Part shown: positions 27,006 to 38,715 of the stretch, in pieces
How positions within the stretch are numbered: the first letter of the stretch is position 1
Layout: each line of letters opens with the position of its first letter
NCBI GenBank assembly: GCA_964558645.1
Contig: CAZLEV010000003.1
Span: 96,001 to 160,000, forward strand
DNA: 64,000 nucleotides
From: an uncultured archaeon
GTDB taxonomy: Archaea; Asgardarchaeota; Thorarchaeia; Thorarchaeales; Thorarchaeaceae
Direction of reading: 5' to 3'
Notes under the pieces: model-generated
The model's database searches: none
What the model was told of the DNA's origin: nothing
What the model saw: only the letters and a program-made list of their open reading frames with translations
Program-made: the position numbers and the translations under genes

Positions 27006-29198
27006 ATGTCCATGAGTGACCTTGATGGCAATCTTGCTCTGAGAATAGTAGACGAAACAAGGCAGATTGCTGACCGTCTCGGAATCACTTCCGAGCACTC
27101 CCAGCGTCATGTTATGGAATGCACACGTCTGGCGTCACTCAACTGGCTTTATCGCCGCACATACGGCCACAGAAATGCGGTTGATGAACTGTTCTTTCGA
27201 AGGCTTACATTCTTTGGAGAGAAATTAGGACTCGATCAGTCGCGTGTTGTCGACGATGTCCGACAGCTCCTGGAGGCATTCCGCAGTAGCAGTTTGATGG
27301 AAGAACTTGGGCGTTCTCCGTGTTATAGTCCTACAAGCCTTATGCTGAAACTCCATTCGATAGGGGCCTTTAGACCTATTAGCCATTCTATGGTTCAGAA
27401 AAGACGGCGCATTCTTGGAAGCTACTTCACGCCTATGCCTTTGGCTCAACATATCGTTGGAATCACCCTCGGACCTTGGCTGGAAGAGAGAAACCTGCGA
27501 GAGAGCTCTTCCGCTTGGGAGCGCGCTGCCCGTGATTTCACACTAATCGACCCGGCCTGCGGCCCGGGGGCGTTTCTTCTTTCTGCGGTTGATTATCTGT
27601 CTAGCCAGCTCAAGCGGAAATGTGACAGGACTAACTACAGACGGAATCTGTCCTTGTTTGTTGATGGTCTCTATGGAGTTGAACTTGATGGGGCTAGTGT
27701 GGAGGTTGCTCATAGAGTGCTAAACCACAGGTTGACAGAGCTTGGGCTGGAGAAGCCGATACCTAGTTCACACATAATTCAAGGTGATTCCTTGATTGGT
27801 TTTCTTAGGGAGCAATCAGGTGCTCCGAAGGAGTATCTATCTAGCCCATCGATCAATGAATTCAATTGGAACGAACGTTTTGAGTGCGAGATGCTGGAGC
27901 AAGGCGGATTCCGTTTTGTGGTGATGAATCCTCCATATGACAGACTCCATCCAAGCCGTGCTGAGTACATCAGAGAGCGCCTTTCTCAAGGCGAACGCGA
28001 AGTCGATATGGAAGGTTTTGAGGCATACAAGACTGAGTTGAAACAAAGAGTTGAGTACTTCAGGAACTCTGGTGAATATAGCCTTGCAAACAAGTACACC
28101 TTAGATACTCACAGGCTGTTCATCGAGCGAGCACTTCGCATCTCAAGAAGTGACGCTCGACTAGGTTTCATCGTTCCTGCATCGGTTCTCGGGGACCTCT
28201 CGGCTGCAGCTTTGAGAGAGGAGATCCTCACCAAGCACTCCATCTATCGCCTTGAAGAATACCAAGAAGGATCCTCGCTTTTCCCCAACGTGACACAGGC
28301 CCTCTGTATTATGAGTGTGAAGAAGGGAAGCCCCAGTGGTATCATCCCTGCTGCTTTCGGTCTTCGGCATCTGCATTCTCGTTCAAAGTTACGACTCGAG
28401 AGTATCTCTGTTCAAAGGATAGAAAACCTCTCAGGAAGTGAGTATATCATTCCACGCTTGAAGTCACAGGATTGGCAGATACTTGACATTATACACAAGC
28501 ATGCAAGCTTGAACAGGCATGACTGGGTACGTATATGTAGAGGGGAGCTTGACCTCACTCTGGATAAGAATCTGATAAGTGCAGATAATGATAAGCCTCC
28601 ACTTCTCAGAGGGTCACACATCAGAAGATTCGTTCATACCTCGAGTATTGAGATTGAGGACTTCGTCGACTATGATGCTTTCAAAGAGAAGCATAGCACC
28701 TCGGAACGCATTGCTCACTCGGAGCGGGAGCGAATCGCTTGTCAGCAGGTCTCGAATCGGAAGCAACGCTGGAGGTTGAAATTCGCGCTCGTGGAACCTC
28801 ATGTAGTGTTGGCAAACTCCTGCAACTACCTGACTCTTACCTGCTGTGGGAGTAGGCCTCTCCTCCTATACCTCTTAGGGGTTCTGAACTCCTCACTCCT
28901 AAACTGGCGGTTTGACATCACAAATACCAACAATCATGTTTCCAATAGAGAACTGGGGCACCTGCCGATTCCGTCGCCTTTTGATTTAACCCCAGAAGCA
29001 GAGCATCTTTACGATGCGATTGTGAAGGATGTCGGAGCTATATTGAACGGAGACACAGATTGTAGTCACAGACTAGAAGGACATGTATTTCAACTCTATG
29101 AGATACCTTCTGCACAAGCCCGAATCGTTCTATCTCACCTTGCCGCAGAGGAGAGAGAAGTCGAAGCTATCGTGCGAGGAATGGATGAAGCCATGTAA
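27006..29198 (+). CDS. N6-adenine DNA methyltransferase, Alw26I/Eco31I/Esp3I-like (gamma class with C-terminal TRD)
   Basis: GSYFTP, DPACGPGAFL, MNPPY, LFIERAL, RGELDLT, LLGVLNSSLLNWRF. Confidence 0.85.
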   Translation: MSMSDLDGNLALRIVDETRQIADRLGITSEHSQRHVMECTRLASLNWLYRRTYGHRNAVDELFFRRLTFFGEKLGLDQSRVVDDVRQLLEAFRSSSLMEELGRSPCYSPTSLMLKLHSIGAFRPISHSMVQKRRRILGSYFTPMPLAQHIVGITLGPWLEERNLRESSSAWERAARDFTLIDPACGPGAFLLSAVDYLSSQLKRKCDRTNYRRNLSLFVDGLYGVELDGASVEVAHRVLNHRLTELGLEKPIPSSHIIQGDSLIGFLREQSGAPKEYLSSPSINEFNWNERFECEMLEQGGFRFVVMNPPYDRLHPSRAEYIRERLSQGEREVDMEGFEAYKTELKQRVEYFRNSGEYSLANKYTLDTHRLFIERALRISRSDARLGFIVPASVLGDLSAAALREEILTKHSIYRLEEYQEGSSLFPNVTQALCIMSVKKGSPSGIIPAAFGLRHLHSRSKLRLESISVQRIENLSGSEYIIPRLKSQDWQILDIIHKHASLNRHDWVRICRGELDLTLDKNLISADNDKPPLLRGSHIRRFVHTSSIEIEDFVDYDAFKEKHSTSERIAHSERERIACQQVSNRKQRWRLKFALVEPHVVLANSCNYLTLTCCGSRPLLLYLLGVLNSSLLNWRFDITNTNNHVSNRELGHLPIPSPFDLTPEAEHLYDAIVKDVGAILNGDTDCSHRLEGHVFQLYEIPSAQARIVLSHLAAEEREVEAIVRGMDEAM

Positions 29199-29245
29199 CG
29201 CCACGCACTACATTTTTCAGTGTAACAGAGAATTCCAGTCTGCAC

Positions 29246-30511
29246 TTGGTGTACTTGATGACCATCGACTTGAGACCTGAAACCACGGATGAGAATAGAG
29301 CTGTTCTCTATAATCATGGGGCTCCTTCTCTCAGTGATCTTGACATCGAAATCATCAAGTCGGTGCCGCCTGGGGGCAACTGGGAAGACATACCTCTCAC
29401 TATTGCCAGGAAATCCAAGAGAATCATGCAGATTCGAAGGTCTGGTGGTCGTACAACATACTATGGTCGTTTAAGGAATGACCTCCCAAGCTACACCGTT
29501 AGCACATACTTCTACCGTCCCGGGAATGGTAGCTTCGCGCACCCTGTGCAAGACCGCATGATCTCGGTTCGAGAGGCAGCCAGGCTCCAGTCTTTCTTCG
29601 ATGACTACAGGTTTTTGGGCTCAGTAAGCTCCCAGTACAAACAGGTGGGGAATGCAGTACCACCTCTGCTTGCAAGGGCTGTTGGTATGACAATCCCTCG
29701 TGGAAAAGCTGTAGATTTGTTCTGTGGAGCGGGCGGCCTGTCGTGCGGCCTTCAGCTCGCAGGACATGAAATTGCGGTTGCCTCTGATGTGGAGAAGGCA
29801 ATGTGTGAGACATACTCATTCAATCATCCCAGTGTGAAGACCATACAGGCAGACATCTCTAACCCTAACGAATATGCGGCATTGATGTCTGCTATAGATG
29901 AATCTCTGGGAACTGATAAGCTCAGTTTGTTGGTGGGGGGCCCGCCCTGCCAAGGATTCTCAACCGCTGGAAAGTGGAGCCTATCAGACAATCGCAACAA
30001 TCTCATCGGCATCATGGTTAGGGCAATTGAAGACTTGTCACCAGACTTCTTCCTTATAGAAAATGTGACCGGGCTCTCATGGATTGGAAAGGGCAGAATC
30101 CTGAGGGGGTTGATTGAAAGGATTGAAGCGCTGGGATATGCCGTAGACTGGTTCATTCTGAAAGCTGAGCAATTCGGCGTTCCTCAGAGGAGAAGGCGTG
30201 TGTTCATTGTAGGTTCCTCTACGGAAAATGAACCACTAAGAAGACCTATGCCCCTGTTTTCAGCGATCAAGACTGGCACCAACCGTGCTGAACCCGCCTA
30301 CGACCCCCCTAATCTCCCCAAGCCTGTTTCCGTCATTGAGGCGATTTCTGATCTTCCTCCTTTGGAGACCGGCGAGGTCTATGAATCCTCTAACTATTCG
30401 ATATCTGATCCAGAATATGAATACCAGAAAGCAATGAGAGGCATCACAGATGTCAGTGATTTTCTCAAGCGACGAGCAGATCCGCAAGCGCATGACTCCC
30501 GCACCTTGTAA
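29246..30511 (+). CDS. C5-cytosine DNA methyltransferase with circularly permuted motif order (M2.Eco31I-like)
   Basis: TRD and motifs IX-X (REAARLQSF; KQVGNAVPP) precede motifs I (DLFCGAGG), IV (GPPCQGFS), VI (ENV), VIII (QRRRR). Confidence 0.9.
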   Translation: MVYLMTIDLRPETTDENRAVLYNHGAPSLSDLDIEIIKSVPPGGNWEDIPLTIARKSKRIMQIRRSGGRTTYYGRLRNDLPSYTVSTYFYRPGNGSFAHPVQDRMISVREAARLQSFFDDYRFLGSVSSQYKQVGNAVPPLLARAVGMTIPRGKAVDLFCGAGGLSCGLQLAGHEIAVASDVEKAMCETYSFNHPSVKTIQADISNPNEYAALMSAIDESLGTDKLSLLVGGPPCQGFSTAGKWSLSDNRNNLIGIMVRAIEDLSPDFFLIENVTGLSWIGKGRILRGLIERIEALGYAVDWFILKAEQFGVPQRRRRVFIVGSSTENEPLRRPMPLFSAIKTGTNRAEPAYDPPNLPKPVSVIEAISDLPPLETGEVYESSNYSISDPEYEYQKAMRGITDVSDFLKRRADPQAHDSRTL

Positions 30512-30586
30512 GAACATCGGAAATGGTTTATAGCACATAACTATTTCATGTCGTCCGTCGTTGCCCCAACAAGGAGAATCAGTTCA

Positions 30587-32275
30587 GTGATACGTTCTGC
30601 GTATCTTATAGACCTCATAGGCTCGAAGATCCTGTCAGAGATGAGCTTCGAGAACGAGAGTATGGTGAAGACCAGATTTGGCTTGATTATGGAGAGGATC
30701 TACAATCTTGTTGAGCGTGAACCCGACGCAGGATGCACCACAATCAGTGCGATAGACTTCAAGTGTCTGGTTGGCCGTCTGGATGAACGGACTGCGTTGC
30801 TTTGTGTCATCGAGGGAGAGCAGTGTGATGCTGAAGAGATGTCCGGTTTCAAGAAACTCAGAACGGCAGTTCAGGATTTGATTGCATCATCATCAGCCCT
30901 CGAAGAGAAGGACAGTTTTCCCTCCATGGCATCCGATATTCTCCAAAAGGACGTGAGAGTATGCTTCATCAGTCCCTCGAAGCCCCCTCCGCGGAACCGA
31001 ACTGGGCTGGCGGTCAGTCGAGTCGTTCAGCAAAAAGAGAAGGACGGTGATATTTTCACATCGGCGTTTTCGTTTGGTCCCTTAGGTGTGAGATTCTGCC
31101 AGATTGATCTTGATGCCGCTGCTTCCCGAGGTCTCCCCTCAGAGATGCAATCTTGCGACGTATACGCCATTGTCGTCAATTCCGAGGCTGAAACAGACGA
31201 GATCCGTTCCGTTGTACCAAGGGTCAGAGAAGTATATAGCGATGAAATAGTCATCGTACCCGGCCACGAAGAGTGTTTGGAATTGGCTCGCGACCTTGAG
31301 TATGAACTTGACCTCGTGCTATCCGATGCTTCATCTGGCGATCCAACTCATTTGGTTCTCTCCGCACTTGCAATGAGTGGGCTCATGGACATGCATCCCG
31401 AGCTCGCAATGAAACGCTGGAAGATTGAGGGATTCGAGAAGGATGAACAAGACGAGGTTCTCAGTGAAGAGAAAGTCCTCGGGCACCAAGCCTTCTTTGT
31501 TGTTGACAAGAACTTGGGTGATGCAATCTACACATACTATTACGAATCAAAGTCATCGGTTCTTTCACGGGCCCCAAACATTGTAGCGGCCTTGTCGATG
31601 TTCAATGTGGAATCCATGCAGCAGATGAAGACTGAGGTGTTCAAAGCAGGGAATCTCACCTACATCATGATAGAACGGGGTGACCTCATCTTCACTCTGA
31701 TAACAGGGAACAGGGCTGATGTGGACGAACTCAGACAGACTTTCTCGTTTCTGCCAGATCTGTACGCAGACGAGCAGCCCGAAGAGGTTGCGGCAGGAGA
31801 TGACCTTTATGCATCTCCACCATTTACCCTCAAACTTCTTGCCACTCTTCCTCCTGAAACACTCTCAAATCGAATGGCTCCATATCGTCTCTCCGCTCCC
31901 GATTGGGATCATTTCAAGTCAGATCTCGTGCGTGACTTTCTGATGGCTGTCTGGAACACGGTTGATGGCTCGTTAACTATCGAAACAATTGTACAGGGTG
32001 CGGGCCCGAAGATGAGCCTGGGTGCTATTCACTTGCTCAAAGCGCTTGATTCCATAGGCTTTGATTTACTCATCACCTCCGAGGACATCCCTCAGATGTC
32101 GAGTTCCCCTGATCCTGAGGTTCTCAAGCTCTATGCAGAACTTGAGCGCATCCTAATAGCTGTGGACGGAGCCAAGACGATTAAGGACATCTCTGAAGTG
32201 ACAAGAATCGATGTTGGGGTTGTGCTTCATGTGCTTAGAGACCTTCATAAACGGGGCATGGTTGCGTTCAAATAG
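30587..32275 (+). CDS. Longin - pseudo-GTPase - longin - 2x winged-helix protein
   Basis: Likely GTG start at 30587 after AGGAG; segment-by-segment similarity to the downstream paralog; lacks GxxxxGKS, DxxG and NKxD. Confidence 0.65.
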   Translation: MIRSAYLIDLIGSKILSEMSFENESMVKTRFGLIMERIYNLVEREPDAGCTTISAIDFKCLVGRLDERTALLCVIEGEQCDAEEMSGFKKLRTAVQDLIASSSALEEKDSFPSMASDILQKDVRVCFISPSKPPPRNRTGLAVSRVVQQKEKDGDIFTSAFSFGPLGVRFCQIDLDAAASRGLPSEMQSCDVYAIVVNSEAETDEIRSVVPRVREVYSDEIVIVPGHEECLELARDLEYELDLVLSDASSGDPTHLVLSALAMSGLMDMHPELAMKRWKIEGFEKDEQDEVLSEEKVLGHQAFFVVDKNLGDAIYTYYYESKSSVLSRAPNIVAALSMFNVESMQQMKTEVFKAGNLTYIMIERGDLIFTLITGNRADVDELRQTFSFLPDLYADEQPEEVAAGDDLYASPPFTLKLLATLPPETLSNRMAPYRLSAPDWDHFKSDLVRDFLMAVWNTVDGSLTIETIVQGAGPKMSLGAIHLLKALDSIGFDLLITSEDIPQMSSSPDPEVLKLYAELERILIAVDGAKTIKDISEVTRIDVGVVLHVLRDLHKRGMVAFK

Positions 32276-32372
32276 ACTGTCAGTATCCCCACCAAAGGTT
32301 CATAGAGGTTGATTTAACTACACGTCCTGAAGGAAAACATCATCTCACATAAAACAAACCCGCTCTGCTGGA

Positions 32373-34346
32373 GTGTGCTGCAATCTGATTCACAATGTTA
32401 TACTCATCGACAAGGCGACTGGAGAAGTCGTCACTAGGGTCAGATTCTGGAAGATAGACTTCACTGATGATGATATACGTGAGTTCATGAATGGGTATTC
32501 GGATCTCATGGACACCGAGGGTCTCTCTCCAGACACTCCGGTCTATGTCGGCGAGCACAAGGTGTTCCACTCTCTTGTTGATGATGATATTCAGCTCATG
32601 CTTGTTACTGATGGCAGAGATGAGGATCGAACAATTGTCCGAAAAGCCAAAGAAGGAGCCGCCCGGATATCTACTGCACTGAGGGGTAATAGCATAGGGT
32701 ATGTGAAAGACAATCTGGATGATATTCTAGATGAGCTGGTCTTCACAAGATTCAAGGTGTCTTTTGTTGGCTCCGGTGGTGTTGGCAAGAGTACGTTGCT
32801 CAGACTACTGTTTGGCAAGGAACCAGCACCAGGCGGCTATGTTCCCACTATCAACGTCGCCGTAGACTCGTCAGAGACAATACAGTTCGGCACTTTTCTC
32901 GTCACCATATGGGACTTCGCAGGGCAGGCGGTATTTCAAGATCTCTGGGCCTTCTATTTCTCGGGCACAGATGTCATTTTCCTCATTACTGACAGCAGTT
33001 TCCGGAATGTGATGCAGACCAAGAGCCTGCTGCGAACCATTCGGAAGGAAGCTCCTGCGGTTCCGCTCTTCATCATTGCAAACAAACAGGATCTCCCGGA
33101 GTCCATGCGAGCTGAGAAGATTCAGCGGCTTCTGGGTGCACCTACGTTCCCAATGGTTGCAACGGACAAGACTCGAAGGGACGAGTTCATTCGACTGATG
33201 CTCGAGGTAGCCACGAAGACAGTGGGAGTCGAGTTGCCCGACAGGCCTCTGAGTGAGATGATTACGGTTCACCGAAAGGACAAGGAGGTTGAACTACCTC
33301 CTCAGCCTGGCAATATTCGCAGCGATTCAGGTGCCACGTCTGGTGAGAAAGGGGAGTGGATCGAAGCTCAGCACAGTGGAGAGAGCGGACTCTCGGGTGA
33401 CTTGAGAGCGGGCGAAGTCAGTGGCGACTCGACAATCGACTACCCCGTCAATATCGAGCCCGAATCTGATGCGGTTGTTGAGATTCCTGAGAAGATTGCT
33501 GAGCAGGCACGGGTTCTCCATGTGATTATGATCGTTCAGGACAGCGGGACGTTCCATACCTGCTACGAGCTCAACTATGCCAACGAGGAAGTGGACGCCA
33601 CCGCAATCACATCTTTGATCTCCGCTCTCGATTCCTTTGGTGGAATCGACGGTGATCCCAGCGGCATGGCCGATAAGAGTGACGCCCTTAAGAGAATCGA
33701 ACACGAAGGAAACCTGGTCATGGTGGAGAAGTCTGACCATTTCTTGCTAGGTGTGACAGTCACCAATGACAGTGAAGAAGAGAAGTATCGAAGGATCATG
33801 TCCTCTCTGCTCTTCGAGTTCGAAGAAGCATATCAAGGAACTTGGGGTGCCTGGGATGGAGATGTGACAATCTTTGAACCCACCGTTTTTTCACTTCTGC
33901 AGAAGATACCAATGAGCCCTATCAGTTTCGACTATGTAGTTCGCGCACGTGAGGCCGGTCGTCCGCTATCATTTGACAGTAGAGAGGTGGGTCGTTCCAT
34001 TGTGGAAGTCAAGAGCGCAATAGAAGGGTCTGAGACCGTTGGAGGCTTGGTTAGAAGCCTAGACCTTCCCCGGGAGAATGTCACTGGAGCGCTGCAGATC
34101 ATGGAGCATTTTGGATGGATTAGCTTTCAAGTTGACCTCGGGCCACAGAGCATTCCTAGGAAAGTCAAGAATCCTGATCCTGACACAGTCAAGGCTTATG
34201 GCACAGCGGTTGTCAAGTTCGTGGATTACTGTGATGGCGAAACACCTCTGGAGGATGTCGTAAAGAAGGTCGGTGTAAGCTACAACGCTATGAAGTTCGT
34301 CGCGACCAAGCTTGTGCTATCTGGTGTTCTTGAGATTGTGGCTTAG
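32373..34346 (+). CDS. Longin - Arf/Ras-like small GTPase - longin - 2x winged-helix protein
   Basis: GSGGVGKST, YVPT, WDFAGQ..F..LW..YF, NKQDLP; longin-like IHNVILIDKATG and LHVIMIVQDSG..LISALDSF; C-terminal (D/E)G..T wHTH repeats. Confidence 0.85.
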   Translation: MCCNLIHNVILIDKATGEVVTRVRFWKIDFTDDDIREFMNGYSDLMDTEGLSPDTPVYVGEHKVFHSLVDDDIQLMLVTDGRDEDRTIVRKAKEGAARISTALRGNSIGYVKDNLDDILDELVFTRFKVSFVGSGGVGKSTLLRLLFGKEPAPGGYVPTINVAVDSSETIQFGTFLVTIWDFAGQAVFQDLWAFYFSGTDVIFLITDSSFRNVMQTKSLLRTIRKEAPAVPLFIIANKQDLPESMRAEKIQRLLGAPTFPMVATDKTRRDEFIRLMLEVATKTVGVELPDRPLSEMITVHRKDKEVELPPQPGNIRSDSGATSGEKGEWIEAQHSGESGLSGDLRAGEVSGDSTIDYPVNIEPESDAVVEIPEKIAEQARVLHVIMIVQDSGTFHTCYELNYANEEVDATAITSLISALDSFGGIDGDPSGMADKSDALKRIEHEGNLVMVEKSDHFLLGVTVTNDSEEEKYRRIMSSLLFEFEEAYQGTWGAWDGDVTIFEPTVFSLLQKIPMSPISFDYVVRAREAGRPLSFDSREVGRSIVEVKSAIEGSETVGGLVRSLDLPRENVTGALQIMEHFGWISFQVDLGPQSIPRKVKNPDPDTVKAYGTAVVKFVDYCDGETPLEDVVKKVGVSYNAMKFVATKLVLSGVLEIVA

Positions 34347-34349
34347 AGG

Positions 34350-36485
34350 TTAGACGTCAAGCACAATCCTCTCCTTGTATTGGGGTAATAGGATATCGCC
34401 ACTTGTTTTCTTGATTGGAGTATGAACCATGGCTTTCTTGCCCGTGCAAGAAGCAACGAACTCTGCGAGCCTTGAAGCTGATGAGTGGGCACTAAGCCGT
34501 GCATATTCAACAGCACACTTGTGATCTTCGTATCCATGCAAGAGATTCCATCCGGTTGTACGTGGTGCAAGGTACCCACACAAGATGACAGCTGCATCTG
34601 GGTTATGTCGATGCTCATTGTAGTGCATTTTGGCAAAGCCGCCGTCGAGCATTCCACCTCCAGCCACTAGAATGTCGTCATCTTCGAGAACGACTTTGTT
34701 CTTTTTCATGCCTGTCCAGTCGCCATTGTAACCCGTCAGCTTGGTCACTCGTTCTGCCATGCCCGCCACAATCACGTTTCTAGATGAGGTAATCCCAAGT
34801 TCGTCAAGCATGACAAGGACTTCCTGTGACCTGCCGACGGCGAAGGTCGGAATAATCACTGGACCGTGTCTGGCTATGGTCTGCGAGACCTGATCAGATA
34901 CTTGTCTTCTGTCGAAATCCTCCCTTTCCCAGTATGTACCGTCAAAGATTGTCAAATCGCAGTCTGTAGGTAGGGTAGCTCCGTGGAACAGCACGGATTT
35001 ATCAAGATTGAAATCACCTGTGTAGAGAATCCTTTTTCCCTCCACATCCACGACAAAAGCCGAGCTTCCGGGAATGTGTCTTGCCTCAGTCGGGGTGACA
35101 ACAATGCCTCCGGCTAGCTCGCTTGCTGTCCCCGTTTCTAGTTGTACATAGTTTCTCTTGACTTTGTCTATGTTCGTCCGATTGAACCAGGAAACCATGT
35201 CATACTTGTCATTCCGTCTCGGCGGAAGTGGAGTCCCTACCTTGAGGGCATCCTCAAGAAGAGTCATCGAAACTGCCCCCGTGATCCCGCTTGCACACCA
35301 CTTCCCCGGATAGTGCTCATAGAGCGCAGGAAGTCCTCCAACGTGATCAAGATGTGAGTGTGTGATAAGCACGCAGTCAATCATCTCCAGTTCAGGGACC
35401 CATTCAGGGATTCTCTGATTAGCGACTGACAGACCGTAATCAAGGAGGATGGCACTGGTATCTGTCCTCACCAGAATGCCACTTCTGCCAATCTCTGGCC
35501 CACCAAGGAATATTATCTCTACTTGCTTGGCCCTTCTAGAATACGCAATTGACGACATCAGTTCCACTCGGAGTTTCTGTGGAATCATCTCAAAGAGGAC
35601 GGGTTCAACTGCTTCAGGAGGGGGTGCCGAATCAAGATCCTGCAGGCGGATGGGCAGTACTCTCCCTTCAGCACTCATGAATCTCCTCTTCTGATAGACT
35701 CTCTGAACGGCATCATATGCCTCTGAAACACCTGCCTCCGGACCAATCTTCTCTTGTGCTTCTTGATTGACTCTCTTTCGGAATATATCGAGAATCCTAG
35801 ATGACAGCACATCAGGCAGCCAGCTTCGGGTTGCCTTATAGACATCCAAGTATTCCTTCCCCCGGAGAGCCTCCTCCAAGTACTCCGGATATCGGCGGAT
35901 CGAATCTGTGAGTCTGAAGTCATCGGATTCCAGGGCTGATTCCAGATTCAAGCCAAGCTCTGAGGCGGGTTCTCTGAAATCATCCGGCTTATAGTAGGGG
36001 GATCCTAAGAACGCAATCCATTCTCTTAGACCACTCATTACCTGCATCGCATTCTTTCCCGATGCGATTTCGATGAGAACAAGGGCTCTCTTCAGAAGGG
36101 CATCTACGCCTTCTTGATGGAGCTTTCCGAGAGAGTATCGATACACATATCGAAGGTCTTCCTCGTCGAAATTTCCGAAGATAAAACCATAGCAACACAT
36201 TGCCAGCGCATCGAGGTATTCCTGCAACGATAATCGGTCTATCTCGCTCAGAAAGATCTTACGTAGGGTCTCGCTCACCTTCGCACCATGCTCTATTCCT
36301 TCGATATCCTCATCAATAGCTACTCTGGCCTGGTAGACTGCAATTTCCAGGCTTCGCTTCAATGGACCGTCCAGGTCCGAAATATCAGCTCTTTCGTCGG
36401 ATATAGAATGGGAGCTGACTCTGGAGAAGAAATCCTGAATCACTTCTGTTGAGGCATCTTCCCGGAGTCGTTCGATCAGTGTCAT
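34350..36485 (-). CDS. Metallo-beta-lactamase/beta-CASP ribonuclease (aCPSF2-like) with ~315-aa N-terminal extension
   Basis: GGPEIGRS, THSHLDHVG, HIPGS, YTGDF, DGTY, FAVGRSQE, SAHS. Confidence 0.8.
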   Translation of the reverse strand: MTLIERLREDASTEVIQDFFSRVSSHSISDERADISDLDGPLKRSLEIAVYQARVAIDEDIEGIEHGAKVSETLRKIFLSEIDRLSLQEYLDALAMCCYGFIFGNFDEEDLRYVYRYSLGKLHQEGVDALLKRALVLIEIASGKNAMQVMSGLREWIAFLGSPYYKPDDFREPASELGLNLESALESDDFRLTDSIRRYPEYLEEALRGKEYLDVYKATRSWLPDVLSSRILDIFRKRVNQEAQEKIGPEAGVSEAYDAVQRVYQKRRFMSAEGRVLPIRLQDLDSAPPPEAVEPVLFEMIPQKLRVELMSSIAYSRRAKQVEIIFLGGPEIGRSGILVRTDTSAILLDYGLSVANQRIPEWVPELEMIDCVLITHSHLDHVGGLPALYEHYPGKWCASGITGAVSMTLLEDALKVGTPLPPRRNDKYDMVSWFNRTNIDKVKRNYVQLETGTASELAGGIVVTPTEARHIPGSSAFVVDVEGKRILYTGDFNLDKSVLFHGATLPTDCDLTIFDGTYWEREDFDRRQVSDQVSQTIARHGPVIIPTFAVGRSQEVLVMLDELGITSSRNVIVAGMAERVTKLTGYNGDWTGMKKNKVVLEDDDILVAGGGMLDGGFAKMHYNEHRHNPDAAVILCGYLAPRTTGWNLLHGYEDHKCAVEYARLSAHSSASRLAEFVASCTGKKAMVHTPIKKTSGDILLPQYKERIVLDV

Positions 36486-36504
36486 GGTTTATCATCTACT
36501 AGGA

Positions 36505-37548
36505 TTAGCGCTCGATGGGCTTGACGGCCATAAATAGTCCTCGTCTGCTATCGCGGAGTGACAGGTGCTTCTTGACCAGTCCTTCAGACATCAGGATGGA
36601 GAGTGCATGTCTGACTGTTCTCGCAGGTAGCATGGTCTCCTCTATGATTTGTCTGGCTGTCAGCTTCTCATGGTATTCCAGTACTTTGAGCACGAGCTTC
36701 GCACTGGGAGGTAGATCTTGAGCAAGATCCTCAAGGATGTCTGTTTTCTTCTGCAATTTGCCGCGCAGGGCGGCGATTCTCTCTTCGGTAAGTTTCACGA
36801 ATATCGCATCGCTATCTGCTCTTCTAACAATGATTGGGCCAGAGTTCACGTTATGCCTGAGCTGCCCATCTAGAATGGTCTCTACCATTACCGGGCAGGT
36901 CAGTTTGCGAATCTCGATTTCTATATTATCCGCCACAATCAGTGGTCTTCTTGCGGGATTTGTGCTGTTCACTGGTATCACAGAGAGAACCGGGGCAGGA
37001 GATAGCACTATGGGGCCGCCTGTACTCAAGGAGTAGGCTGTACTTCCAGTAGGAGTGGCTATGATAAGTCCATCACTGCCGTCTTTCCAAAACTCCTCTC
37101 CATCGAGGTTCAGTGAATACCTGATAAGTGTAGCATTGCGTTTGGCAAAGATAGCTGCTTCATTAAGAGCAGGTGGAATTTCGCTATCGCCAACAGTAAC
37201 TGAGAGGCGAGAACGATGATCTTCAGTCCACTCGCCTGCAATCAAGTCTTCAACGGCAAGTTCGAAATTGCCTGTCGTAACGTCAAAGAAGAAGTCCGGC
37301 TGCCCTCGTGAAGAAATAGGCAGAATTGGGGTTGGGCAGTTGCCCATCTGTAGTAGGGTGTCAAGGACTGTTCGGTCAGAGCCAACGACGGCCACGACAT
37401 CCGCATCTAGGTCATCAAGGTTCTTGCCCGAGGAATCCAAGGCTTCTGCCAGCCCATGCTCTAGAATCACGTCTGCTCCCTCTTGATTGAGCAGATACAG
37501 CACTGACTTTGCGTCCTGAATCATGCTTGACTCATTGCCGGAAATCAA
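36505..37548 (-). CDS. nadK: NAD kinase-like domain fused to C-terminal winged HTH
   Basis: ALNE, DGLIIATPTGSTAYSLSTGGP; GGDGT replaced by GSDRT; C-terminal LPPSAKLVLKVLE..RTVRHAL; the frame extends upstream to ACG at 37560. Confidence 0.8.
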   Translation of the reverse strand: MISGNESSMIQDAKSVLYLLNQEGADVILEHGLAEALDSSGKNLDDLDADVVAVVGSDRTVLDTLLQMGNCPTPILPISSRGQPDFFFDVTTGNFELAVEDLIAGEWTEDHRSRLSVTVGDSEIPPALNEAAIFAKRNATLIRYSLNLDGEEFWKDGSDGLIIATPTGSTAYSLSTGGPIVLSPAPVLSVIPVNSTNPARRPLIVADNIEIEIRKLTCPVMVETILDGQLRHNVNSGPIIVRRADSDAIFVKLTEERIAALRGKLQKKTDILEDLAQDLPPSAKLVLKVLEYHEKLTARQIIEETMLPARTVRHALSILMSEGLVKKHLSLRDSRRGLFMAVKPIER

Positions 37549-37657
37549 ACCAATCTTCGTGTTTCATTCCTCCCCAGAGGGAACATGTCTTGTCGTTCTA
37601 CCTTACCCTCTTAAATTGAGTGCCGAATTGTAAAGCATCACTATACTCATATTGTTT

Positions 37658-37699
37658 GGCAATTATTGCCGAGGCTTCATCAATGGGTCAATAATTGCC
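37658..37699. promoter_or_regulatory. Two GGCAATwATTGCC-type palindromes between the divergent nadK and nadA promoters
   Basis: GGCAATTATTGCC 37658-37670; GTCAATAATTGCC 37687-37699. Confidence 0.55.
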
Positions 37700-37758
37700 G
37701 GTTGAGATTTCATTAAAATACCCTATTTGATGCTTAATCTCGACGGATTTGATGAAGG

Positions 37759-38715
37759 ATGAAACTCAACGAACTTCAGAAACGCATTGTCGAACTGAAA
37801 GCAAGGCGTAATGCACTCATCCTGGCCCACAACTATCAGACACTTGAAGTACAGCAAATAGCAGATTTCGTTGGTGATTCGCTGCAGCTCGCTAGGAAAT
37901 CATCAGAGATAGAGGGCTTTGATATGGTCATCTTTGCAGGTGTACGTTTCATGGCCGAAATGTCAGCTGTCTTGACGGACATCCCAGTCTATATTCCAGA
38001 TCCAGATGCTCTCTGCCCCTTGGCTGCTTGGGTCCATCCTGAGAAGATTCGTTCAAGACGGAGCGAGTATCCTGATGCTCCAGTAGTAGTCTATGTCAAT
38101 ACGACTGCAGAAACCAAGGCCGAATGTGATGTCATATGCACGTCGAGCAATGCCGTTGAGGTCATTGAATCTCTTGGTGCTACACAGGTTCTGTTCGGTC
38201 CAGACAGGAATCTAGCCGAGTATGTTCGCAGGCAGACTGACTGTGAAATTGTTGATATAGAACCTCGTGGGAGCTGCTATGTTCACCTCCAATTCGTGCC
38301 CGAGGATATCACTCGACTGAAGGAGGAGCATCCTGATGCTATTGCTATTGCCCATCCGGAATGTCCACCAGAGGTTCAAGAGGTATCGGACATCGTTGGT
38401 TCGACAGGGAAGATGGTTCAAGTTGTTGCTGAGTCTTCAGCTCGAAAGTTCATTATAGCCACTGAGTTAGGCCTAGTAGAGCAGCTCCAGGCTGACCATC
38501 CTGACAAGATGATCATGGCTGCAAAGCCCACTGCAGTATGTAGAACTATGAAGAGGATTACTCTTGAGAAAATTCTTCATGTCTTAGAAGACTTACCTGC
38601 CGATCATCGGGTAACAGTTCCGAATCATATGACTGATCACATACGCACTGTATTGGAGAAGATGAACCGCCTCAAGACACGTGAAGAGGCAGAAACTGTG
38701 ACTGCCTCACATTAG
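37759..38715 (+). CDS. nadA: Quinolinate synthase
   Basis: ILAHNYQ, GDSLQL, YVNT, CTSSNA, CYVH, AHPEC, C.TMK. Confidence 0.95.
   Translation: MKLNELQKRIVELKARRNALILAHNYQTLEVQQIADFVGDSLQLARKSSEIEGFDMVIFAGVRFMAEMSAVLTDIPVYIPDPDALCPLAAWVHPEKIRSRRSEYPDAPVVVYVNTTAETKAECDVICTSSNAVEVIESLGATQVLFGPDRNLAEYVRRQTDCEIVDIEPRGSCYVHLQFVPEDITRLKEEHPDAIAIAHPECPPEVQEVSDIVGSTGKMVQVVAESSARKFIIATELGLVEQLQADHPDKMIMAAKPTAVCRTMKRITLEKILHVLEDLPADHRVTVPNHMTDHIRTVLEKMNRLKTREEAETVTASH

Follow-up and report, generated by a model that had tools for sequence, protein, structure and literature searches.

An NPRL2/3-like longin-winged helix module in a conserved tandem pair of longin-GTPase paralogues, one predicted to be active and one predicted to be dead, in Thorarchaeaceae

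The closest described counterpart of the gene pair considered here is NPRL2-NPRL3 (Npr2-Npr3) of GATOR1/SEACIT, the GTPase-activating protein (GAP) for RagA/Gtr1, whose two paralogous chains consist of an N-terminal longin domain plus two or more winged helix-turn-helix repeats (PMC3747258), and whose NPRL2 longin provides, from one of its loops, the catalytic Arg78 of GATOR1 (PMC7464330). For Asgard archaea, the accessible part of the study by Liu et al. describes an NPRL2-like family in most metagenome-assembled genomes of Thorarchaeota as well as Rag-family GTPases fused to longins (bioRxiv 10.1101/2020.10.19.343400), longin/roadblock-GTPase architectures are known from MK-D1 (Tran et al., PMC10933270), and other Asgard longins, of the FLCN/SMCR8 type, have been linked to eukaryotic GAP longins (PMC12290439). 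Such Asgard proteins bear on how Rag and Arf GTPases were brought under the control of eukaryotic longin regulators such as GATOR1, folliculin, and C9orf72-SMCR8, and on the assignment of Asgard GTPases to their longin partners. Here we describe two adjacent genes, A and B, in a stretch of 64,000 nucleotides (“the window”; positions 96,001 to 160,000 of contig CAZLEV010000003.1, assembly GCA_964558645.1) from an uncultured archaeon of the family Thorarchaeaceae. By sequence comparison, A and B are tandem full-length paralogues consisting of a longin, a Ras-superfamily G domain, a second longin, and two winged helices, the G domain being predicted to be active in B and to have lost its nucleotide motifs in A. 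Their features are as follows, with residues of A counted in the 575-amino acid open reading frame (ORF) that starts at the ATG at 30548.

30587..32275, forward strand: gene A, 562 amino acids from the GTG at 30587; longin, predicted pseudo-GTPase, longin, and two winged helices
30587..30949, forward strand: A, N-terminal longin (residues 14-134)
30950..31417, forward strand: A, predicted pseudo-GTPase domain (135-290), a small-GTPase fold without P-loop, DxxGQ, and NKxD
31475..31777, forward strand: A, second longin (310-410), the best conserved part of A, aligned with the C-terminal longin of B
31886..32275, forward strand: A, linker helix region and two winged helices (447-575) plus stop codon, collinear with the winged helices of B
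32373..34346, forward strand: gene B, 657 amino acids, GTG start; longin, Arf-like GTPase, disordered linker, longin, and two winged helices
32388..32732, forward strand: B, N-terminal longin (6-120), from profile-profile alignment with the modelled longin of A; invariant TDGRDED loop motif
32733..33242, forward strand: B, small GTPase domain (121-290); G1 GSGGVGKS, G2 Thr159, G3 WDFAGQ, G4 NKQD, G5 TDK
33243..33503, forward strand: B, acidic low-complexity linker (291-377) of about 85 amino acids, variable in sequence and length
33504..33842, forward strand: B, second longin (378-490)
33843..34346, forward strand: B, helical connector and two winged helices (491-657; model elements H168-E228 and H234-E286) plus stop codon

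With NPRL2-NPRL3, which are also associated with a small GTPase and provide the best structural match in the PDB, A and B have in common a longin followed by two winged helices, the occurrence as two paralogous chains, and, in the alignment with a broad family profile, an ‘IDG’ winged-helix motif. In contrast, the module described here makes up the C-terminal half of its protein, which in addition contains another longin and a G domain (a pseudo-G domain in A), it is unmatched by the Pfam families NPR2, NPR3, and HTH_NPRL3, no conserved loop arginine was found in it, and the attached GTPase is Arf-like rather than Rag-like. Rag/Gtr heterodimers and the Asgard longin/roadblock-GTPase fusions likewise have a G domain joined covalently to a longin- or roadblock-type dimerization domain in two paralogous chains, and some orthologues of B carry a precomputed Gtr1_RagA match. 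However, the longin is N-terminal of the G domain here whereas Rag has a C-terminal roadblock dimerization domain, A would be a dead GTPase partner, an NPRL-like module is present in addition, and the Gtr1_RagA score of B stays below the cut-off. C9orf72-SMCR8 and FLCN-FNIP, the longin-heterodimer GAPs for Arf and RagC, can be likened to A and B for a heterodimeric longin platform acting on GTPases of the Arf or Rag families, as proposed for A-B, and for a conserved glycine between β1 and β2, but they possess DENN domains after the longin where A and B have winged helices. Three consecutive longins are found in the tri-longin guanine nucleotide exchange factors (GEFs) for Rab (Mon1-Ccz1, Fuzzy-Inturned, HPS1-HPS4), whereas A and B have two, with the G domain between them, and no third. 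The stand-alone NPRL2-like family of Thorarchaeota, as far as it is described in the accessible part of Liu et al., has the same module of about 280 amino acids but no G domain, and is probably represented by a tandem pair in the genome from which the window stems.

In the accessible literature, a search revealed no text on a fusion of an NPRL-like module to a GTPase, on a pseudo-GTPase sister, or on a conserved tandem pair. Within that scope, the new part seems to be the fusion of an NPRL-like module and a longin-GTPase in a conserved active/dead tandem pair. A first-pass annotation, made from the sequence of the window, had called the pair the best candidate for an undescribed system in the window; ‘undescribed’ is too broad with respect to the NPRL2-like family and the longin-GTPase fusions, which are already published, and seems justified for the tandem fusion with one active and one dead member.

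The two co-oriented ORFs occupy the whole interval 30587-34346 and are separated by an intergenic gap of 97 nucleotides. Although ORF A is open from the ATG at 30548, the likely start is the GTG at 30587, because homologues of A (179 in the database, nearly all from Thorarchaeota and about 40% identical) begin at this residue and because the Shine-Dalgarno-like sequence AAGGAG is situated 8-16 nucleotides 5′ of it; a TTTATA-like box is found about 55 nucleotides 5′ of the same codon. B has 371 homologues in Thorarchaeota, which are about 64% identical and are named ‘ADP-ribosylation factor-like protein’ or ‘GTP-binding protein’ at their source. In the C-terminal 260 amino acids, BLASTP aligns residues 303-548 of A with 373-629 of B at 21% identity (E = 6e-7), and a profile-profile alignment (hhalign) made from 47 A-type and 38 B-type sequences takes in every domain and spans 550 columns (probability 97.9%, E = 4.6e-13). 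The N-terminal halves also align when taken alone (240 columns, probability 94%, E = 1.3e-7), and therefore the homology of A and B does not depend on their C-terminal part. The ORF positions and the start of A at 30587 given by the first-pass annotation agree with these data, the two C-terminal strings that it quoted are found in A and B, and its claims that the two proteins are homologous and have one five-domain layout in common are borne out by these alignments and, for the layout, by fold models of A and B together with the Pfam Arf match described below. The (D/E)G signature that it had noted is real as well, the D/E-G pair being nearly invariant in the last winged helix of 81 sequences.

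The G domain of B is, judged from its motifs, an intact and extremely conserved Arf-like GTPase that is predicted to be active. Pfam Arf matches residues 125-256 with E = 1.3e-17 and 64.3 bits (cut-off 22.3), Roc (58.8 bits) and Ras (49.2 bits) also exceed their cut-offs, and TIGR00231 (small_GTP) reaches 60.8 bits (cut-off 42.5), whereas Gtr1_RagA with 21.1 bits remains under its cut-off of 22. The closest PDB sequences are those of Arf1 (E = 6e-15), and GSGGVGKS, the switch I residue Thr159, WDFAGQ, and NKQD are invariant in 38 orthologues. B is Arf-related and not Arf proper, since a longin of 115 amino acids and not an N-terminal amphipathic helix precedes the G domain. This longin displays two invariant arginine-containing loops, TDGRDED and ALRGN, which are missing from A and are candidates for contacts with the G domain. 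G domain and C-terminal longin are connected by about 85 residues in B compared with about 20 in A, and in the alignment of orthologues the linker of B is gapped and unconserved, with a mean identity of 0.34 and a net charge of about -11.

A, in contrast, is a predicted pseudo-GTPase, because its fold is retained while P-loop, DxxG, and NKxD are found in none of its members. AlphaFold2 models residues 14-300 of A, with 46 aligned relatives, as a longin followed by a small-GTPase fold (predicted local distance difference test, pLDDT, 91; predicted template modelling score, pTM, 0.86). In a Foldseek search this model matches best to engineered LOV2-Rac1 fusions, in which an α/β sensor domain precedes a G domain, followed by longins and Rho-family GTPases. 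GxxxxGK[ST], DxxG, and NKxD are absent from all 47 aligned A members, the equivalent positions reading ITxxxPxxED, VxVM, and VPGSD, the last in place of NKQD. The view that both proteins contain a GTPase thus applies to B, which has the motifs of an active enzyme, whereas in A they are lost. Pfam and NCBIfam scans of A give no match above cut-off; the second longin is touched by Fuz_longin_1 (E = 0.006; 17.3 bits against a cut-off of 26.1) and residues 540-573 by weak TrmB, ArsR, and MarR matches. The net charges of its two winged helices are about -1 and -3.

The C-terminal module of both proteins is, by modelling and sequence comparison, NPRL2/3-like in architecture, although the sequence support is borderline and it is not classed here as a member of the NPRL2 or NPRL3 families. 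For residues 370-657 of B, AlphaFold2 with an alignment of both families predicts a canonical longin and, C-terminal of it, two winged helices (pLDDT 86.6, pTM 0.82), and the longin shows the ββαβββα topology along with structural matches to solved longins. The 12 best Foldseek matches of this module in the PDB are all chains of GATOR1/SEAC (E = 8e-6 to 3e-3; 362-461 modelled residues, alignments of 296-380 columns). Beyond these 12, Foldseek gives only matches to single longin domains; NPRL chains alone match the three domains collinearly. One of the chains, 8adl_S, is yeast Npr2; the NPRL2 sequence is present in entries 7t3a and 7t3b, whose B chains with 362 modelled residues agree in length, and their C chains are taken to be NPRL3 from chain length alone. 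A broad family profile comprising the modules of A and B, stand-alone proteins, and Helarchaeota relatives places human NPRL2 first (E = 1e-4) and yeast Npr2 next (E = 1e-3) among 177,635 PDB sequences, and the aligned region comprises the connector together with the first winged helix, the ‘YIDG’ motif of NPRL2 among it. MON1 longins follow (E = 2e-3, longin alone), and generic MarR and ArsR regulators are worse than 0.01. The resemblance of the C-terminal 280 or so amino acids to NPRL2/NPRL3 that had been proposed from the sequence is therefore supported, and the contrary case of ordinary DNA-binding or PqqD-like winged helices is not, as MarR/ArsR and PqqD types score worse.

When 1.84 billion representative proteins are searched exhaustively with a profile, only 78 relatives of the module are found, namely the A type, the B type, stand-alone proteins of about 270-300 amino acids, and proteins of Helarchaeota that have a third winged helix. 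All members that were looked up or sampled are from Asgard archaea, and none was traced to a bacterium. HTH_NPRL3 is touched by a distant Helarchaeota relative only (E = 4.5e-5, below cut-off). A shape search of the ESM Atlas yields Thorarchaeota clusters and generic longin/V4R proteins but no eukaryotic NPRL cluster. Scanning 81 module sequences with Pfam gives sub-threshold matches only, to HTH_47 in 21, PaaA-like_N in 13, Fuz_longin_1 in 11, and DUF742 in 4 of them. The HTH_47 match traces to an unrelated clostridial protein.

The distribution of the pair was studied in 201 genomes of the phylum. At a threshold of E ≤ 1e-40, a profile of the N-terminal part of B matches all 43 other genomes of the window's family, the single genome of a sister family (f2), and all 19 of a further Asgard family (f12), where the matching proteins are longin-GTPases of about 290 amino acids without the tail, and it matches none in 24 other families. 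A is confined to the window's family, where it is intact and free of stops in 39 of 43 genomes. Of the 40 A-bearing genomes, 33, from 16 genera, have A immediately upstream of B in the same orientation, with about 1.8 kilobases from start to start. A and B lie at contig ends in four of the 40, and in two, from one genus, a gene is inserted between them. This insert (G152 and G170; L025 6438-8024, forward strand) codes for a predicted membrane or secreted protein of 528 amino acids on the strand opposite to A and B, and breaks any possible co-transcription of A and B in that genus. In three family genomes without A, the profile of B finds only a low-scoring longin-GTPase (E = 1e-75 to 1e-85), which is the score range of a second longin-GTPase paralogue devoid of the NPRL module; A and B seem to have been lost together in these genomes. 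The co-orientation and co-occurrence of the two genes noticed in the window therefore extend to the family, with adjacency in 33 of 40 genomes and no high-scoring B where A is absent.

The second longin-GTPase paralogue just mentioned (G000:C19; L019 4849-6633, reverse strand) is a protein of 594 amino acids in which a highly acidic, disordered tail of about 300 residues replaces the NPRL module. In its neighbourhood are encoded a 379-amino acid protein (L019 8141-9280, reverse strand) without a Pfam match, which by eye consists of a longin and winged helices and a relative of which also neighbours longin-GTPases of another Asgard family, and a small GTPase of 321 amino acids (L019 127-1092, reverse strand) with a C-terminal tail resembling a winged helix.

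Mean pairwise identities indicate that the domains of the two proteins are under different constraints. The N-terminal longin reaches 0.73 in B and 0.39 in A, and the G or pseudo-G domain 0.92 in B and 0.43 in A. In the C-terminal longin, the values are 0.65 for B and 0.67 for A, and in the winged helices 0.70-0.76 for B and 0.60 and 0.49 for A. Going by these alignments, the dead G half of A is relaxed while its NPRL-like longin is held as tightly as that of B, which is expected if A works mainly via its C-terminal longin, for example by pairing with that of B.

The history of the pair might have begun with the fusion of a stand-alone NPRL-like gene to a longin-GTPase gene, followed by tandem duplication of the fused gene; the upstream copy would then have lost its nucleotide site while its NPRL-like module stayed under strong selection. 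Such a sequence of events fits the existence of a stand-alone module pair and the match of the B tail to the stand-alone profile with E ~1e-48. Three stand-alone copies of the module are present in the window's genome. Two of them are tandem proteins of about 280 amino acids with a longin and two winged helices (G000:C17; L003 1483-2325 and 2385-3227, both on the reverse strand) and adjoin a Roadblock/LC7 gene (L003 88-480, forward strand; Pfam E = 3e-10), whereas the third is a single protein of 302 amino acids (G000:C11; L004 1438-2346, reverse strand). Practically all genomes of the window's family contain the stand-alone tandem pair. This pair probably corresponds to the NPRL2-like family of Liu et al., whose work was reportedly published in Nature in 2021. 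Genomes of family f12 encode, close together, two longin-GTPase paralogues that are active and about 290 amino acids long (L027 4397-7450, L028 3403-6198, L029 3785-9740), and since these lack the module, paired longin-GTPases may be older than the module fusion. The f12 paralogues flank a conserved basic, cysteine-containing protein of 298 amino acids, with no family assigned, in two of three loci.

On balance, we lean modestly towards A and B forming a heterodimer of one active and one dead G domain in which an NPRL2/3-like platform acts on the tethered G domain. The two proteins would associate through their longin domains, as do longin/roadblock proteins, NPRL2-NPRL3, and RagA-RagC. The platform, tethered to the active G domain by the flexible 85-residue linker, might dock on it and set or read its nucleotide state, be it as a GAP, as a GEF, or by GTP-dependent effector binding, and the acidic winged helices would serve protein-protein contacts and not DNA binding. 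Several observations weigh against this reading. Binding of A to B is suggested by gene adjacency and co-occurrence only, and adjacency is weaker evidence of coupling than it may seem, because descent by itself can keep paralogues side by side and because synteny across genera extends to a neighbourhood of seven genes (N6-adenine methyltransferase, C5-cytosine methyltransferase, A, B, beta-CASP nuclease-like protein, NAD kinase-winged helix protein, nadA). A single-chain fusion of A and B larger than 1,007 amino acids was not found, which is weak evidence. TM-scores between the module and NPRL chains are 0.25-0.30 in Foldseek, and since these are low, the likeness probably lies in domain order and local shape and not in a rigid arrangement. 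Profiles narrower than the broad one reach NPRL2 only with E = 0.75 and 0.11, and the register is ambiguous, the first winged helix being aligned with the broad profile and the second with the narrower ones. Pfam NPR2 (PF06218), NPR3 (PF03666), and HTH_NPRL3 (PF24064) match neither protein at E ≤ 1 and, in a six-frame search of the genome, give nothing at the A-B locus at E ≤ 10. Finally, no invariant arginine exists in the loops of the C-terminal longin of A or B, which speaks against an arginine-finger GAP of the GATOR1 type; the comparison with Arg78 of NPRL2 relies on conservation in family alignments and not on superposition of residues. An arginine finger facing the GTP site, suggested earlier as a check, thus has no invariant candidate in these loops, the sole family-wide invariant arginine (R473 in B, R396 in A) being situated in helix α2. 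Of the GP motif carried by eukaryotic GAP longins (PMC12290439), only an invariant glycine in the β1-β2 loop has a counterpart in the module. A complex prediction for residues 303-575 of A and 370-657 of B gave interaction prediction scores from aligned errors (ipSAE) of 0.09 and 0.06, the mark being 0.32; run without controls, this prediction counts neither way.

The same synteny could mean that A and B are functionally independent tandem duplicates, each forming its own homodimers, with A decaying or neofunctionalized and adjacency reflecting ancestry. Such independence would agree with the much faster evolution of A, with the sister family f2, which has B but no detectable A, and with one genome (G063) in which A and B are on different contigs even though room for A is present upstream of B, a case that also counts against a heterodimer. 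However, A is not decaying, as it is intact in 39 of 43 genomes with a C-terminal module conserved like that of B, the two genes seem to have been lost together in three genomes, and longin regulators and Rag GTPases are typically heterodimers of paralogues (PMC3747258; PMC7464330), so that we consider independence rather unlikely. Winged helices are the commonest DNA-binding fold of archaea, and A-B might be a Rag-like switch with transcriptional output, a GTP-gated transcription factor that binds DNA through its winged helices and whose occupancy of promoters depends on the GTP state of B; the last winged helix gives weak matches to TrmB, ArsR, MarR, Rrf2, and HTH_47, and the GTP-sensing repressor CodY is among the weak PDB matches. 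This is quite improbable, since all of the Pfam matches remain below their cut-offs and the best structure and sequence matches are to NPRL2/3, whose winged helices make protein contacts. In addition, the winged helices of both families are neutral to acidic (median net charge 0 to -3, isoelectric point 4.7-6.6), unlike typical DNA-binding ones, which argues against DNA binding.

Longin and winged helix-turn-helix are both very common folds, and the likeness to NPRL2/3 might be convergent if the module came from the prokaryotic world of roadblock proteins, winged helices, and small GTPases, such as MglA/MglB or the actinobacterial conservon proteins CvnB-CvnC-CvnD. MglB and roadblock structures do occur among the fold matches, DUF742 (CvnC) is weakly present in the four of 81 members mentioned above, and one distant relative has a DUF742 match of E = 1e-4. 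Still, the domain topology is that of a longin and not of a roadblock, no prokaryotic winged-helix protein scores as well as NPRL2 and Npr2 in the sequence search of the PDB, a collinear match to the three domains is given by NPRL chains only, and the few relatives found among 1.84 billion proteins are, where looked up or sampled, Asgard and never bacterial, which makes such an origin very improbable. At the other extreme, A-B could be a self-contained switch of tethered GTPase and regulator that shares ancestry with Rag-GATOR1 or Arf-C9orf72/SMCR8. The two tails would then form an NPRL2/3-type heterodimer that serves as GAP or GEF for the tethered Arf/Rag-like G domain, and A would contribute its dead G domain in place of the second Rag. 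In this strong form, the proposal is distinctly unlikely to be correct; if true, the pair would have preserved in archaea a stage at which a single gene product still comprised both the GTPase and its longin regulator. A role in nutrient sensing would be pure analogy.

For the heterodimer that we favour, the assignment of partners is written into the gene structure, as an active GTPase and an NPRL2/3-like module are one chain and the sister with the dead GTPase is usually adjacent. Should A-B and GATOR1 be related by descent, control of a GTPase through an NPRL-type platform would be older than the eukaryotes; should they not be, A and B would still constitute a clear pair of active and dead GTPases in archaea. 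By analogy, A-B may be regarded as a compact archaeal counterpart, open to testing, of a GTPase and the protein that regulates it, and as a small, soluble-looking two-protein system it lends itself to direct recombinant tests of heterodimerization, of GAP or GEF activity, and of the role of the pseudo-GTPase.

Directly upstream of A, the window encodes an Eco57I/N6-adenine-type methyltransferase (730 amino acids) and a C5-cytosine methyltransferase (421 amino acids) at 27006-30511 on the forward strand, with no nuclease gene visible. Among seven Thorarchaeota loci of different genera, six have these two genes in the same place beside A-B, an unusual stability for genes of the restriction-modification type. 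They were considered as parts of the system and rejected, as the only argument is synteny, which extends equally to downstream housekeeping genes. On the other side, the region 34350-38715 contains a gene for a metallo-beta-lactamase/beta-CASP protein of 711 amino acids with a long N-terminal extension, convergent to B, a gene for a fusion of NAD kinase with a MarR-like winged helix, and the quinolinate synthase gene nadA, divergent from that of the NAD kinase, and these genes are syntenic with A-B throughout the window's family.

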